Shown piece by piece: positions 17,766-26,234 of a DNA stretch of 64,000 bases; the stretch's first letter is position 1; each line of letters opens with the position of its first letter. The DNA comes from an uncultured Chloroflexia bacterium (GTDB lineage: Bacteria; Chloroflexota; Limnocylindria; Limnocylindrales; CSP1-4), in assembly GCA_963734995.1 (NCBI GenBank), contig CAVTJD010000012.1, positions 13,754 to 77,753 of the forward strand, written 5' to 3'. The position numbers and the translations under genes were made by a program. The notes under the pieces are model-generated. The model was given only the letters and a program-made list of their open reading frames with translations. It was not told where the DNA came from and searched no databases.

Positions 17766-18020
17766 GAGCTTCGGTCCGAAAATAGGCCGGTGAGTCGGTC
17801 CGCTTTCCGTCCGGACGGAGCTCTTGGTTTTTCTGGACCCTTTCCGTGGAACGTGTTTGAATGGCTGTTTTTCAGGGGGTTGATGCGGCGCAACCGGCAC
17901 GTCGTTGCCGGCCGAGGCGGCAGGGGTGCAATGGCCTGGGGCGCGGTCGCCTCGCGCTGTTCTGTGCCGCCGAAATCAAACCCGCAGAAACGCTCGTCCA
18001 TCGATCGTGGAGTCAAAGGA

Positions 18021-19231
18021 ATGAACGGAAAAAGGATCGGAACTGTCGTAAAAATCGCTCTGACGGTCGCCGGGGTTCTGCTGGTGGCGAAGCTGGGCCT
18101 GAGCCTGGTCAAGCCTGATGGGGACGCGGCCGTGAAGCCTCCCTTCCAGGTCGCAGAGGTGCACCGGGGAACGCTGGAGACGCTGGTTTCCAGCACCGGC
18201 ACCCTGGCAGCGGTGGAGACCGTGGATGTCGGCACCCAGGTCTCGGGAACCATCTCCCGCCTGGCTGTCGACTTCAATGATCGGGTAAAAAAAGGGCAGG
18301 TGCTGGCGGTCCTCGACCAGCCCTGTTTCAGGCCGCCGTCGGGGAGGCCGAGGCAACGGTATAAAAAGCCCGGGCGCAGCTCGCCCAGGCCGAGGACGAA
18401 TTCAGGCGCAATAAACCCCTGCTCGAGCAGGGGTTTATCTCCGAACAGGAATTTCTTCCCATACCAGACCGGGGTCGCGACCGCCAAAGCCGATCTGGCT
18501 TCGGCGCAAGCCGGTCTGAAACGGGCGCGGACCAATCTCGCCTACGCCGTCATTCGCTCTCCGATCGACGGGCATCATCATCGCCCGCAACGTCGATGCC
18601 GGGCAGACCGTCGCCGCGAGCTTCAACACCCCCACCCTGTTCGTCATCGCCAAGGACCTCGCGAACATGCAGATCGAGGCCACGGTGGATGAGAGCGACA
18701 TCGGACAGATCCGCCAGGGACAGGCGGTGCGGTTCACCGTGCAGGCCTACCCGGACAGGACCTTTACCGGCAAGGTCACTCAGATTCGCCTGCAACCCCA
18801 GACCATCTCCAACGTTGTCAACTACACGGTAATCATTCAGGCAGAAAACGCCCGGGGACTGCTGCTTCCGGGGATGACGGCGACGGTTGATTTCGTGGTA
18901 GCCCAGGTGAAAAACGCTCTGCTGGTCCCGAACGCTGCCCTGCGCTTCCAACCGAAGACAAATAATCAGGCGCACCAAACCCGCCCCAAAGCGATGACAG
19001 CGAACGCCGCCGAAAGAGACAACGGGCTATCTCTACACTCTCGGCGAGGGAGAACGCCCGCAGCGGCTCCGGGTTAAAACGGGACCGAGCGACGGAATAT
19101 CGACAGCCGTTACCGGCAACGACATCCAACAGGGAATGGAAGTGATCACCGGACTCAGGCAACAGGAGCAAACGGCCCGCAGCGGCAAAGGGTTCTTCAG
19201 CATCTTTCGCCCACCGCACCACGGCCGATGA
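18021..19231 (+). CDS. MacA-like efflux periplasmic adaptor; frameshifted
   Basis: [60 protein letters not shown]. Confidence 0.88.
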
Positions 19232-19242
19232 GCGGAGGCGAC

Positions 19243-20007
19243 ATGGAGACCATTGTCCTGAAAAACATTCGCAAGGTGTTCACCATGGGCGACACCCGGG
19301 TCGAGGCCCTGCGGGGGGTTTCGCTGACCGTCGCCAACGGTGAGTTCGTGGCGATCATGGGGGCCTCGGGATCGGGAAAGTCGACCCTGATGAACATCCT
19401 GGGGTGTCTCGACCTGCCGAGCGAGGGGGAACTACTTCCTGGAGGGCGTGCGGGTCAACGGCCTCAACAAACGGCAGCTGGCCGACATCCGCAACCAGAA
19501 GATCGGCTTCGTCTTCCAGGGCTTCAACCTGCTGCCGCGCACCACGGCGCTGGACAACGTCGAGCTCCCGCTGCTCTACGGCCGCAGCGGACACGTCCAA
19601 GATCCCCGGGCCCAGGCGGTGGCGGCGCTGGAGCAGGTCGGCCTCAGGGACCGGCTGCGCCATGAGCCGACCCAGCTCTCCGGCGGCCAGCAGCAGCGGG
19701 TGGCCATCGCCCGCGCCCTGGTCAACCGGCCGGCGATCCTGCTCGCCGACGAGCCGACGGGCAACCTCGACAGCCGCACCACCGTCGAGGTGCTGGCCGT
19801 CTTCCAGTCCCTCAACGAGCAGGGGATCACCGTCATTCTCGTCACCCACGAAGCGGAGGTGGCCCACTACGCCAAACGGGTCGTCGAGGTGCGGGACGGG
19901 CTGATCCTGCGCGACGAGCCGGTGACCCGCGCCGCCGGGCGGCAGAGGATCTGGAGCAGTGGAGCGCCACGGGGAACTGGTCCGGATTGGGACATAAGGC
20001 ATGTTAA
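19243..20007 (+). CDS. MacB/LolD-type ABC ATPase; frameshift near 19430, 3' end approximate
   Basis: [45 protein letters not shown]. Confidence 0.9.
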
Positions 20008-20081
20008 CGCAGAGCCGCCGAGACGCAGAGGAGCCCTTTAATCTTCACTTTTCTTTAGGCCTTGTCCTCGGCGTCTTTGCG
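20006..20081. repeat. CGCAGAG-type imperfect inverted repeat between the ATPase and permease genes
   Basis: ACGCAGAGCCGCCGAGACGCAGAGGA ... TCCTCGGCGTCTTTGCG. Confidence 0.5.
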
Positions 20082-20173
20082 ACGTGAGAGAGCGACGCGA
20101 ACGGGCGTTAAAAATAGGTTTGCTTTGGTTTTTCCATCAGAAAATCGGACTCTTAAAGGAAATCGAATTGACC

Positions 20174-21396
20174 ATGAAATGGCAGAAGCTGATCAAAGTC
20201 GCCCTGCAGAGCATCGCCAAGAACAAGATGCGCAGCCTGCTCACCATGCTCGGCATCATCATCGGCGTCGGCTCGGTGATCGCTCTGGTCGCCCTCGGGC
20301 AGGGCTCCCAGAAGGACATCCAGGGGCAGATCGCTTCGCTGGGGACCAACCTGATCATCATTCACTCGGGAAGCAGCCGGACCGCCGGGGTGCGGGGAGG
20401 GGCAGATAGCCTGCAGACCCTCACCATGGACGACGCCGACGCGCCTTCGCTGAGAAAGGCGACCCAACTCCAGGGAGTCTCGCCCGTCATTACCGTGCAC
20501 GAGCAGGTCATTGCCGGGCGCAACAACTGGAACACCTCGATCACCGGAGTGGCGCCGGAGTATCCGCAGCATCCGTAACTTCAGTATGGCGCAGGGGCAC
20601 GTTTTTCAGCGCACGGGATGTCAAGACCCGCAAAAAGGTGGCCGTGCTCGGCAAGACGGTCGCCGATCAACTCTTCCCCGGCGAGGACCCCCTCGGGGCG
20701 CGCATCCGCGTCCGCAACGTCCCCTTCAAGGTCATCGGGGTCTTGGCGCCCAAGGGACAGACCGCCATGGGCCGAGACCAGGACGACGTGATCCTGGCCC
20801 CCTCCACCACCGTTCTTTACCGGTTGAGCGACGGCAAAACAGTGCAGGCCATCATGGCCAGCGCTGTCTCGGCCGACCGGATGGCGGCGGCCAAGAGCGA
20901 GATCACCACTCTGCTGCGCGAGACGCACCGCCTGCAGCAGGGGGAGGACGACGATTTTCATATCCGCGACCAGACGGAGATCAACCAGATGGCAACCCGC
21001 ATCACCGGCACGATGACGTTGCTGCTCAGCTCCATCGCCGGGGTCTCCCTGCTCGTGGGAGGGATCGGCATCATGAACATCATGCTGGTTTCGGTGACCG
21101 AACGCACCCGTGAGATCGGCATCCGCATGGCCATCGGCGCCCGCCCCGGCGACGTCCTCATCCAGTTCCTCATCGAGGCGGTCATCCTCAGCGTCCTGGG
21201 CGGGGTGGTCGGCATCCTCGGCGGTGTCGGCACCGCGACGCTGCTCGGTTCACTCATGGGCACGAGCGCCGTCATCAGCCCGGCGGTCATTCTCGGTTCG
21301 GTGGCTTTCACCGGGGCGGTAGGGATTTTTTTCGGCTTCTACCCCGCACGCAAGGCGGCCAACCTCAATCCCATCGAGGCGCTGCGGTATGAGTAG
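20174..21396 (+). CDS. MacB-like ABC permease; frameshift near 20575
   Basis: NKMRSLLTMLGIIIGV, SLLVGGIGIMNIMLVSVTERTREIGIRMAIGA, PARKAANLNPIEALRYE. Confidence 0.92.
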
Positions 21397-22152: not shown

Positions 22153-22342
22153 CGGCCCAGAGAGGGCCGATTGGGCTCTTGAGCCCCTCCCGGAACTCTT
22201 TCCATTGACATCTCAATCCGAGAAATGATGAAAACATGACATTTGCAAGGTTTATGGTAGTCTTTTACCAAACTTGCCGTTTCAATGAGAAATCCAACGA
22301 CCCCTGGCAGGATTTATACGGCAGGCGAGAGGAAGAGATGCG

Positions 22343-22675
22343 ATGGAAACGTATTACGATCCGAAGGACCTTGGTAAATTTGCCGAAATCGGCCGCGATG
22401 CGCCCGAACTGGCTGATAAATTTTTCGACTACTACGGCGCCGTTTTTGCCGAGGGGGCCCTTAGCTCCCGGGAAAAAGCCCTGATCGCGCTGGCCGTCGC
22501 CCATGCGGTCCAATGCCCGTATTGCATCGAGGCCTACACCCGCGCCTGCCTGGAAAAGGGGGCCGATATCGAGGAGATGACCGAAGCTCTGCACGTCGTT
22601 ACCGCTATCCGCGGCGGCGCGTCCCTGGTACACGGGGTGCAGATGCGTAAACTGGTGGAGAAACTTACCCTATAG
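22343..22675 (+). CDS. AhpD/CMD-family peroxidase-like protein of the type found beside ArsS radical SAM genes
   Basis: YYDPKDLGKF, EGALSSREKALIALAVAHAVQCPYCI, AIRGGASLVHGVQM. Confidence 0.88.
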   Translation: METYYDPKDLGKFAEIGRDAPELADKFFDYYGAVFAEGALSSREKALIALAVAHAVQCPYCIEAYTRACLEKGADIEEMTEALHVVTAIRGGASLVHGVQMRKLVEKLTL

Positions 22676-22698
22676 AGACGAGGGCAGAAAAACGCAAA

Positions 22699-23676
22699 AT
22701 GAACGCCATCCCTTCTTTCAGGTTACCTTCCTTTGAAGAGAGCCTGCAGGCCAACAATCGCACTCTCGCGCGGGAAAAGACGCAAACCCTGCAGATTAAC
22801 GTAGGGCGGCTATGTGATCTGTCCTGCCGCCACTGTCACCTGGAAGCCGGTCCGGGACGGAGCGAGACCATGACTCCGCAGACCATGCAGGCGGTTATCG
22901 ATTACGCCCATCGCGCCTCGTTCCAGATGATCGACATCACCGGAGGGGCCCCCGAACTCCTCCCCGACCTGCCGTCTCTGCTCAAAGGGCTCGCTGCGGC
23001 AACGCCCCGGCTGATGCTGCGCTCCAACCTGACCGCCTTGAGCGAAGAGGGGCGACAACCGCTGTTCGATCTCTGCCGGGACCTCAACGTCACCCTTATC
23101 GCCTCCCTGCCGGCCGTCAGCCTTCGCCAGACAGAAGCGCTGCGGGGGGAAGGGGTCTGGGAAAAGAGCCTCACTGCGCTGCGTCGCCTCAACGATCTGG
23201 GCTATGGTCGAAAGGAAAGCTGTCTGGAACTGGATCTGGTGGCCAACCCCGCGGGAGCCTTTCTGCCGCCGGACCAGGAGGAAACCGAGCGGCGGTTTCG
23301 CCGCGCCTTGACCGAGCGCCTCGGCATCGAATTCAATCATCTCTATCTTTTCGCCAATGCGCCCCTGGGCCGGTATCGCCGTTGGCTCGAAACTTCAGGC
23401 AACTATACCGACTACATGGCCAGACTGTTTCACGCCTTCAATCCCTGTGCGACCGATGGGCTCATGTGCCGCACCCTGGTATCGGTCGCCTGGGACGGCA
23501 CGCTCTACGATTGCGATTTCAACCTGGCGGCTGAGCTTCCCATGACCGGCCGCAGAGTACAGGTGACGGAGATGGACGGTTTGCCTGCCCTCGGCACTCC
23601 CATCGCTACCGGCGAGCACTGTTACGCCTGCGCGGCCGGCTCCGGCTTCACATGAGGGGGGAAGATCGCGACCTAG
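22699..23676 (+). CDS. arsS: ArsS-family (arsenosugar-type) radical SAM protein, probable selenoprotein (TGA 23653-23655 read as Sec)
   Basis: LQINVGRLCDLSCRHCH, DITGGAPEL, LMCRTLVSVAWDG.LYDCDFN, HCYACAAGSGFT-[TGA]-GGKIAT-TAG. Confidence 0.85.
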
Positions 23677-23686
23677 TTGAGGTCGC
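23668..23686 (+). promoter_or_regulatory. Putative bacterial SECIS hairpin
   Basis: GCGACCT-AGTTG-AGGTCGC perfect 7-bp stem starting 12 nt after the TGA; G then T in the loop. Confidence 0.7.
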
Positions 23687-23833
23687 CGAAAGGACATGCC
23701 AATGCAGACTCTAGCGTATACGGGAGGGGGCTGAAGGGACGCCCCCGGGGGGAACAACTCAATTGAGCGGTTCACGCTCCGTGCGTACAAACGAGCTTGA
23801 CCAACGAGCTCATCCGGGAAGGAGGTGAAAAAG

Positions 23834-23989
23834 ATGAGGAAACTGGTATCGCTGCTGACGGCGATGGTTCTGGCAATCTCCCTTTCCGCGTGTGCGGGTA
23901 TGCACCACGAGAAGGAAAAGACCATGCATGTCAAATGCCCTGCCTGCGGGTATGAATTCAACGTGCCTGTTCCGCATGGTGGGCCCTAG
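23834..23989 (+). CDS. 51-aa lipoprotein with a CPAC motif (not in the ORF track)
   Basis: AAGGAGGTG RBS; MRKLVSLLTAMVLAISLSA-C lipobox; AGMHHEKEKTMHVKCPACGYEFNVPVPHGGP. Confidence 0.8.
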   Translation: MRKLVSLLTAMVLAISLSACAGMHHEKEKTMHVKCPACGYEFNVPVPHGGP

Positions 23990-24291
23990 GGAGAATCTAG
24001 CAGTCAACCTGTAAGGGAATGGAAAGGGTCCCGATTCGGGAAAAGAGCCTTCGCCCATGATGACCCGAGGTTGAGGGAAGGCAACAGTGCAAAAAGGACC
24101 TTTTCCGGACTGAATCAAGGCAAAATTCCAGCCCGGGCTTAGGTAAAGGGCCCGGGCTGGAATGTCCTCTCCGGAATTGACCGACTTTTTGACAAAGGAG
24201 CCAAACCGGAGAGGCTTTTCTCCGGGCCCGCATTCCATGAGAAGAAATTGGAGGGCCCATAAAAAGCCCGCTTGCAAAGGTTCTTATCCTT

Positions 24292-24963
24292 TTGCGGATC
24301 AGCGGCCTGACTGCCGCCTTCTTTGCCTCCGACCTGCAACACGACGTCACCTTCGCCTATCTCAAATCGAGCCGGCACGCCTTTTCCCGATTCTACGCCG
24401 CCCACAGATTACCGCCCAACATGGGGATCGATCAAGTGCCGTACCTCACCTCGGACAATATCTGGGAACTGCGGCGGCGACTCGAACGCCTGGTCGTTCT
24501 TGGTGGCGACCCGATCGGCTGCGAGCCGGCCCAGACCTTCGCCCGCTTCGGCAGTAACGTGACCCAGATGGAGATGGCGGATCGCCCGCCGGGACGGAAG
24601 GACGAGGAGGTTTCGACATTGGTGCAGGGGCAGTCCTGCGAAGTGACACGATTTCCCTTCCGGAAACTCGACCGGACCATCGCCGATGAAGAAGAGCACG
24701 GTTTCGCCAAGGTGCTGACCAAACCGGGAAGCGACAGAATTCTCGGCGTCACCATTGTCGGCTCCCATGCCGGCGACCTCATCACCGAGTACATCGGGGC
24801 GATGAAAAACGGCATCGGCCTGAATAAAATTCTCAGCACCATCCACATCTACCCGACCCTGGCCGAAGCCAACAAGGCGGTAGCCGGCGAATGGAAAAAG
24901 GGCCACGTGCCCGCGGGACTCCTGCGCTTGATCGAGAAGTACCATGCCTGGCGGCGAGGCTGA
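24292..24963 (+). pseudogene. Internally deleted relic of a (TVP38-fused) pyridine nucleotide-disulfide oxidoreductase, mercuric reductase/LPD-like
   Basis: Degraded GGDPIGCEPAQTF (from GGGPIGCELAQ); intact C-terminus RILGVTIVGSHAGDLI..HIYPTLAEANK; no FAD-binding or redox-Cys region. Confidence 0.75.
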
Positions 24964-24998
24964 AGTCGAACCGTCGTTCCGATTTTAAAGGGGGAATC

Positions 24999-26234
24999 AT
25001 GCGCCAGAAAAAAATCACCTTCACCAACGCCGAGGGGGTAGAGCTCGCAGCCCTGCTCGACCTGCCGGAGGACGAGCAACCCGTCGCCTGCGCCCTCTTC
25101 GCCCACTGCTTCACCTGCACCAAGAATCTCGCCGCCGCGGTCAACATCTCCCGTGCACTCACCCGGCGGCGCATCGCCGTTTTCCGCTTCGACTTCACCG
25201 GCCTCGGGGAGAGTCAGGGGGAATTTGCCGAATCCACCTTCTCCTCCGACGTGGGCGACCTGATCGCAGCGGCCCGATACCTCGAAGAGCACTATCAGGG
25301 ACCGAGCATTCTCGTCGGCCACTCCCTCGGGGGGGCCGCCGTGTTGCAGGCCGCCGGCGAGATCCCCACGGCACTCGCCGTGGCGACCATCGGCGCCCCG
25401 GGCCACCCCAGCCATGTCGCGAGCTTGCTCGCCGATTCCCGCGAGCGGATCGAACGCACGGGGGCAGCAACCGTTCAGCTCGCCGGCCGCAGCTTCACCA
25501 TCAAAAAAACCTTTCTCGATGATCTGGAACGCCAGGACTCCTGGGAAATGATCGGCCGCCTCAAGACCGCGCTGCTGGTGATGCACTCGCCCCGGGACAC
25601 GGTCGTGGGCATCGACAACGCGGCGAAAATATACCAGGCGGCCAAGCATCCGAAGAGCTTCATCTCCCTCGATCCGGCCGATCATCTGCTCAGCCGGCGG
25701 GAGGACGCCCTCTATGCCGGCGACATGATCGCCACCTGGGCCGGCCGCTACCTGGCAACGGGCGATGAGAAAAAGGCCTTCCCCGAGGTGATCGACAACC
25801 GGGTGACCGCCCGCACCGGCCCGGAGGGATTCTTTACCGATCTCTTCGTCAACGGCCGCGCCCTGACGGCCGACGAACCCGAAACCTACGGGGGAAGCGG
25901 CCTCGGACCTTCTCCCTACGATTACCTGCTCGCCGCCCTCGGCGCCTGCACCACGATGACGGTGCAGATGTACGCCCGCCGCAAGAAGTGGCCGATGGAT
26001 GCGGCGGTCGTCCGCCTGCGCCATGAAAAGATCCACGCCGAAGACTGCGCAACCTGCGATCAGAATGGGAGCAAGATCGACCGCTTCGAGCGCGAGCTGG
26101 AGCTTCAGGGGGACCTCAGTACCGAACAGCGTCGACGGCTTCTGGAAATTGCCGAGAAGTGCCCGGTTCATCGCACGCTGCATTCGGAGGTAAAGATCGA
26201 ATCCTGGCTGAAAGAGGACGGCAGGGAGGTATGA
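24999..26234 (+). CDS. Bifunctional alpha/beta hydrolase - OsmC family protein
   Basis: AHCFTC, RFDFTGLGES, GHSLGG, ADHLL, ADEP...GPSPYDYLLAALGACT, KCPVHRTL. Confidence 0.93.
   Translation: MRQKKITFTNAEGVELAALLDLPEDEQPVACALFAHCFTCTKNLAAAVNISRALTRRRIAVFRFDFTGLGESQGEFAESTFSSDVGDLIAAARYLEEHYQGPSILVGHSLGGAAVLQAAGEIPTALAVATIGAPGHPSHVASLLADSRERIERTGAATVQLAGRSFTIKKTFLDDLERQDSWEMIGRLKTALLVMHSPRDTVVGIDNAAKIYQAAKHPKSFISLDPADHLLSRREDALYAGDMIATWAGRYLATGDEKKAFPEVIDNRVTARTGPEGFFTDLFVNGRALTADEPETYGGSGLGPSPYDYLLAALGACTTMTVQMYARRKKWPMDAAVVRLRHEKIHAEDCATCDQNGSKIDRFERELELQGDLSTEQRRRLLEIAEKCPVHRTLHSEVKIESWLKEDGREV

Follow-up and report, generated by a model that had tools for sequence, protein, structure and literature searches.

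ArsS is a radical SAM enzyme of organoarsenical synthesis, a pathway that has so far been studied mainly in phototrophs. The enzyme adenosylates dimethylarsenite to give DDMAA (PMC13598754), and the available portion of that article names ArsS enzymes without mention of whether they are of the Cys or the selenocysteine (Sec) form. In the available excerpts of two reviews, tables put the family among the predicted prokaryotic selenoproteins (PMC9312934) and enter it under the motif GxxU, with a reference to Zhang & Gladyshev 2005 (PMC13188914, its reference 13). The NCBIfam family TIGR04167 (rSAM_SeCys) likewise bears the product name "arsenosugar biosynthesis radical SAM (seleno)protein ArsS." In literature other than subscription journals, our search turned up no report of an experiment on the insertion of Sec into ArsS.

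Where Sec is inserted in bacteria, the UGA is followed by a SECIS element, and the closest described counterparts of the stem-loop discussed below are such elements (e.g., that of E. coli fdhF), which form just 3′ of the UGA, keep a fixed distance between the UGA and the loop, and have a G in the first two loop bases. The bSECISearch consensus features that we use in this comparison are said to be those of Zhang & Gladyshev 2005.

Here we analyze an arsS gene in a window (the whole 64-kb stretch of DNA under study) whose apparent stop codon is a TGA followed by further codons in frame. The preliminary description of this DNA had called the gene a hidden selenoprotein, and the word hidden does not hold, as the family name already contains "(seleno)protein" and both reviews, in the parts available, list the family as predicted. 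The locus is an ordinary member of a selenoprotein family that has been catalogued before, it has the partner gene usual in that family, and its kind is already known.

The arsS reading frame and its in-frame TGA

The features of the locus within the window are as follows.

22343–22675, + strand: AhpD-like partner of 110 aa with a CPYC motif, an arsenosugar biosynthesis-associated peroxidase-like protein (TIGR04169; Pfam CMD)
22699–23676, + strand: arsS, full coding sequence with the TGA taken as Sec (U319), predicted product 325 aa, predicted true stop TAG (TIGR04167; Pfam Radical_SAM and DUF3641)
23653–23655, + strand: putative UGA Sec codon, U319, in the motif G-F-T-U (aligned codon TGA or Cys in 98 homologous loci; GxxU family motif in the available part of PMC13188914)
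23656–23673, + strand: C-terminal tail GGKIAT, six codons that would be translated only after Sec insertion (Gly conservation in homologues)
23668–23686, + strand: candidate SECIS stem-loop of 7 bp with loop AGUUG, spanning the predicted true stop (family covariance model, homologous hairpins, covariation)
23674–23676, + strand: predicted true stop TAG, made up of the last base of the hairpin 5′ arm and the first two loop bases (sequence letters)

Read directly from the sequence, the ATG at 22699 opens a frame of 318 codons with the C-terminus ...HCYACAAGSGFT, followed by TGA at 23653–23655; the truncated ORF (22699–23655) thus ends in ...CYACAAGSGFT. Past the TGA, the frame reads GGG GGG AAG ATC GCG ACC and closes at TAG 23674–23676, so that reading through the TGA gains 7 residues, U plus GGKIAT, and lengthens the protein from 318 to 325 aa. 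The window's ArsS in the public protein collection (P0002) is 318 aa long and is therefore the truncated form. The preliminary description had placed the ORF end at TGA 23653 with an onward GGKIAT frame to TAG and a perfect hairpin (GCGACCT/AGTTG/AGGTCGC) 12 nt past the TGA, and its letters and coordinates are exact throughout; its statement that standard gene callers lose 7 residues is borne out by the stored protein.

On its sequence, the gene at 22699–23676 is identified as arsS. The protein truncated at the TGA matches TIGR04167 at 361.5 bits (curated equivalog cut-off, 300) over profile positions 2–297 of 303, and the read-through protein matches it at 371 bits over the whole profile (2–303 of 303). 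The Pfam domains are Radical_SAM (44 bits) and DUF3641 (156.8 bits), and coverage of DUF3641 extends from 1–129 to 1–133 of its 134 positions once the TGA is read through. The cluster motif CxxxCxxC is present as C39, C43, and C46 (CDLSCRHC), and in a 26-sequence alignment these three cysteines are invariant, as are the C-terminal C308 and C311. The Cys-rich end of DUF3641, CxxC...G-x-x-(C/U)-G-G, is matched by C308, C311, and U319 with the GG that follows it. Thus, the locus has in common with the ArsS family a full-length profile match, the CxxxCxxC motif, a Cys-rich C-terminal domain, the G-x-x-U/C-GG ending, and an adjacent TIGR04169 partner, with no structural difference, and the protein is a member of this family.

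The aligned codon, the tail, and the Sec apparatus

In a class-level scan, none of the 200 other genomes sampled had ArsS, and the comparison was therefore extended to the phylum and to metagenomes. Among 400 other genomes sampled from the phylum, 20 contain ArsS (21 of 401 with the window's genome), 15 of these with one in-frame TGA and 5 with none. Altogether, 103 loci were examined, with 2 from reference genomes, 21 from the phylum scan (the window's own copy included), and 80 from metagenomes. The position of the codon was located in 98 of the 103; the other five (L035, L052, L076, L095, and L116) are outside all counts. At the aligned position, 68 of the located loci, among them the window's own copy (L022) and a 96.9%-identical relative (L016), have TGA, 22 have TGC, and 8 have TGT, so that a Cys codon occupies the position in all 30 located non-TGA homologues. 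Whether the TGA pairs with Cys in ArsS homologues was one check proposed in the preliminary description, and it does so, with a GG tail following in both forms. The same division is seen in protein databases, where 86 of the best 119 homologues (the window's own forms aside) stop at exactly ...GFT and 33 run on as C-GG, the Cys-form entries continuing C-GG(E/A/S)I....

The codons beyond the TGA are conserved at the level of the peptide. Among 67 Sec loci (L022 excluded), the second codon after the TGA encodes Gly in 66 (GGA 13, GGC 28, GGG 18, GGT 7), the first encodes Gly in 50, and the tail is 5–8 codons long in 61. Tails of the Cys form are alike, the second codon encoding Gly in all 29 loci where it could be read. 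Codons that vary synonymously while the peptide stays conserved point to translation of the tail. L016, the relative with 96.9% identical DNA, comes from an independent assembly and shares the TGA, the frame, and the hairpin with the window, differing in the tail by one synonymous change.

The genome also encodes the apparatus needed to insert Sec, and selA, selB, selC, and selD, for which the preliminary description had suggested a search, are all present. The selA (433 bits) and selB (258.6 bits) genes are adjacent on contig C13, and selD occurs in two copies (411.7 and 335.6 bits), all of these above curated cut-offs; ARAGORN detects a tRNA-SeC (anticodon tca) on C13 as well. Beside one selD copy is an FdhA-like gene with a TGA within ...CNRT*HAPSVVGL..., which we take to be the canonical formate dehydrogenase Sec site. 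A compact selenium cluster thus lies at ~73.8–82.4 kb of contig C13, outside the window:

C13 73785–76049, minus strand: selB and selA
C13 77515–77613: tRNA-SeC (selC)
C13 79845–80774: selD, adjoined by the FdhA-like gene
C13 81245–82408: FdhA-like gene with in-frame TGA

The stem-loop 3′ of the TGA and the rival readings

The hairpin consists of two perfectly complementary arms, GCGACCT (23668–23674) and AGGTCGC (23680–23686), around the 5-nt loop AGTTG, and it starts 12 nt past the TGA, with its loop starting at 19 nt. The single-sequence fold of 23653–23700 has an energy of −12.7 kcal/mol (z = −0.71), which 47 of 200 shuffled sequences equal or better. By itself the hairpin is within chance, and only the comparison of homologous loci makes it significant. 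An Rfam scan of 23400–23900 at E up to 10 returned three chance-level matches only and no SECIS family, a null that speaks against membership of Rfam's own SECIS families and not against SECIS function.

For the comparison across homologues, we used the 92 loci (64 Sec and 28 Cys) whose sequence extends 70 nt or more past the codon; they are related and include some near-duplicates. By criteria chosen after seeing the data (−4 kcal/mol or better, with the loop starting 17–22 nt past the codon), 57 of the 64 Sec loci have a hairpin vs 1 of the 28 Cys loci. These 57 hairpins represent 48 different sequences, and 56 of the hairpins have a G within the first two loop bases, which is absent from the single Cys-locus hairpin. 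In L016 the hairpin is identical to that of the window, and indels between the two begin at 23695, just past it.

RNAalifold found no consensus structure in an ungapped 34-sequence alignment because loop lengths of 3–5 nt shift the 3′ arms out of register, and it was replaced by a subset of 14 sequences whose loops have the same length and by a covariance-model alignment. The covariance model, R1, was derived from 14 homologous loci whose loops are 4 nt long, with both the window and L016 excluded. On the 64-kb window, R1 matches 23653–23693 at 26.7 bits (E 6.4e-7; runner-up, 12 bits), a score that comes partly from the conserved coding letters UGA GGN GGN and is favored by them. Over 98 sources and with E limited to 0.01, R1 gives 42 matches, its 14 training sequences among them, all starting at the Sec-form UGA and none in a Cys form, including four closely related Cys loci (L067, L069, L079, and L082). 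The model is specific to its subfamily and leaves Sec forms of other ArsS branches unmatched. In the model-based alignment (A4), which was fitted to the model structure and in that respect favors the result, 88.8% of pair cells are standard pairs vs a shuffled mean of 74.2%, and compensatory two-sided changes occur in 5 of the 7 stem pairs (50 cells). None of 500 shuffles reached the observed covariation score, and shifting the partner by 1–3 columns lowered pairing to 26–53%. From these comparisons, we conclude that the stem-loop is conserved in position and covaries after the TGA of Sec forms and, by the counts of 57/64 vs 1/28, is absent from Cys forms, which was the SECIS check put forward at the outset.

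Like the bacterial SECIS elements introduced above, this stem-loop lies just 3′ of the UGA, keeps its loop a fixed distance away (here 19 nt), and carries a G as one of the first two loop bases. Unlike them, it spans the true stop, with its 3′ arm in the untranslated region, and it has no match to an Rfam family. It spans the stop because Sec would sit 7 residues from the C-terminus.

Judged by comparison with its homologues, the apparent stop UGA at 23653–23655 is very probably a selenocysteine codon, and other explanations of the TGA and the hairpin have to be weighed against this. If the TGA were a real stop, the product would be a 318-residue ArsS without a Cys/Sec tail, and the downstream frame and hairpin would be leftovers. 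Standard gene calling does yield the 318-aa product (P0002), the fold of the hairpin alone is within chance, and some truncated product is likely anyway, since Sec insertion is, to our knowledge, never complete. However, in 66 of 67 Sec loci the amino acids of the tail are conserved while their codons vary synonymously, the hairpin covaries and keeps its position, the genome retains the full Sec apparatus, and the residue is Cys in 30 of 30 located non-TGA homologues, all of which leaves a real stop only a slim chance.

We consider it very improbable that the hairpin is a transcription terminator, an mRNA-stabilizing stem-loop, or a chance palindrome rather than a SECIS. Its location at the 3′ end of the gene, reaching past the true stop, would suit a terminator or stabilizer, as would the lack of an Rfam SECIS match in the region scanned, but no T-run follows it, and a terminator scan of 22300–24300 returned 0 sites. 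Furthermore, 27 of the 28 Cys-form loci have no hairpin here, though they would need a terminator too, and the fixed distance from the UGA to the loop, 17–22 nt in 57 of 64 Sec loci, stands against a terminator and against chance. There is scarcely any likelihood that the TGA arose from a Cys codon (TGC/TGT) through a sequencing error or a recent inactivating mutation: several neighboring genes of the window are split between frames, which indicates defects in the assembly or the genome, but the TGA is shared by L016, from a second assembly, and by 66 further loci of other organisms. Even jointly, a true stop, a terminator, and a sequencing error account for only a small part of the probability.

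The reading that arsS is here a true recoded selenoprotein gene, cut 7 residues short by calling that stops at the TGA, is supported. The alignment with Cys, the conserved tail, the covarying stem-loop, and the presence of selA, selB, selC, and selD all favor the recoded selenoenzyme that the preliminary description had proposed. In practice this would be a correction of annotation, whereby the arsS product is 325 aa with Sec at 319, not 318 aa. The same truncation is seen in most of the closest database entries (86 of the best 119), and expressing such truncated records would drop the conserved C-terminal Cys/Sec. Nothing new is added to the biology, as lists of predicted selenoproteins have included the family for years.

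The true stop is UAG in the window and is also UGA in 38 of the 67 Sec-form homologues (L017, L044, L049, and others). In 14 aligned loci, the 5′ arm of the SECIS contains this UGA stop, within the conserved CCUGAGUUCAGG, 6–7 codons past the Sec UGA, and two UGAs 21–24 nt apart would thus be decoded differently in those homologues. Farther downstream in the window, an intergenic GC-rich hairpin with GGGGC/GCCCC arms is found at 23727–23745, where Rfam gives a chance-level match to eiav_FSE (12.6 bits, E 2.6); this second hairpin is unconserved because L016 has indels there.

The proposed role of Sec319 and the gene neighborhood

As a mechanism, we propose that the window copy is the selenoprotein form of ArsS, in which SelB and tRNA-Sec would decode UGA 23653–23655 as Sec under the direction of the stem-loop at 23668–23686, whose apical loop starts 19 nt past the UGA. 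After Sec, the residues GGKIAT would be added, and translation would stop at the TAG inside the hairpin. The predicted activity of the enzyme is to add the 5′-deoxyadenosyl group of SAM to dimethylarsenite, which would be the first committed step in the synthesis of arsenosugar-type organoarsenicals. Sec319 would replace the C-terminal Cys of Cys-form enzymes on a tail that is unordered in the structure model. We infer Sec insertion at U319 and a function for Sec319 from these comparisons, and our guess as to that function is that Sec319 binds the As(III) substrate or takes part in redox exchange with the CPYC of the AhpD-like partner.

The AlphaFold2 model (26-row alignment) has a mean pLDDT of 89.6 and a pTM of 0.89, and residues 318–325, U319 included, have a pLDDT below 50. 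Sec is thus placed with low confidence in the model, and the tail may be flexible. The nearest solved folds found by Foldseek are the SPASM/twitch radical SAM enzymes SkfB, SuiB, BlsE, EpeE/YydG, anSME, and MoaA (E 5e-11 to 1e-6, TM ~0.5). Although these are the best structural matches to the predicted ArsS model, their identity to it is 12–18%, and the Sec/Cys tail of ArsS is without demonstrable counterpart in them; a sequence search of the PDB found no ArsS structure. The C-terminal tail of mammalian thioredoxin reductase is Gly-Cys-Sec-Gly. That enzyme also has Sec a few residues from the C-terminus in a flexible, Gly-flanked tail, but its fold and chemistry are unrelated, and the likeness is an analogy only.

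The partner gene directly upstream of arsS matches TIGR04169 at 195.4 bits (cut-off, 120) over profile positions 1–109 of 109. Within the flanks available, a homologue of the partner is found just upstream of arsS in 60 of the 98 loci (36 of 68 Sec and 24 of 30 Cys). The arsenite methyltransferase ArsM, which supplies the substrate of ArsS, is encoded in the same genome with a match above cut-off. It is encoded elsewhere, and in this the genome differs from the ArsS comparison system, since arsM and arsS are not adjacent. The arsS cassette is sporadic in the lineage and may have been acquired horizontally. The fuller proposal is that Sec319, on its unordered tail, is an As(III)-capturing ligand or a redox relay to the CPYC of the partner, and that a perhaps horizontally acquired cassette gave an anaerobe-type lineage an organoarsenical pathway; we put this forward tentatively and rate it as rather unlikely.

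Downstream of arsS, an alpha/beta-hydrolase fused to an OsmC-like domain (24891–26234) has a weak match to NF041052, "OsmC-related (seleno)protein" (61 bits vs a cut-off of 95), and no in-frame TGA was seen in this fusion gene. Upstream, an efflux-type operon at 17790–21396 (HlyD-like protein, ABC ATPase, and MacB/FtsX permease) is split between overlapping frames, and the fragments are either frameshifted pseudogenes or the product of assembly indel errors:

17790–18692 and 18667–19077: HlyD fragments
19228–19665 and 19448–20041: ABC_tran fragments
20084–20578 and 20638–21396: MacB_PCD fragments

Between arsS and the fusion gene, a short lipoprotein-like ORF of 52 aa is present at 23831–23986, followed at 24292–24963 by a decayed FAD-dependent pyridine nucleotide-disulfide oxidoreductase, of which profile parts ~141–218 and 402–508 of 509 survive. 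In this stretch, single-base indels at 24059, 24082, and 24279 distinguish L016 from the window.
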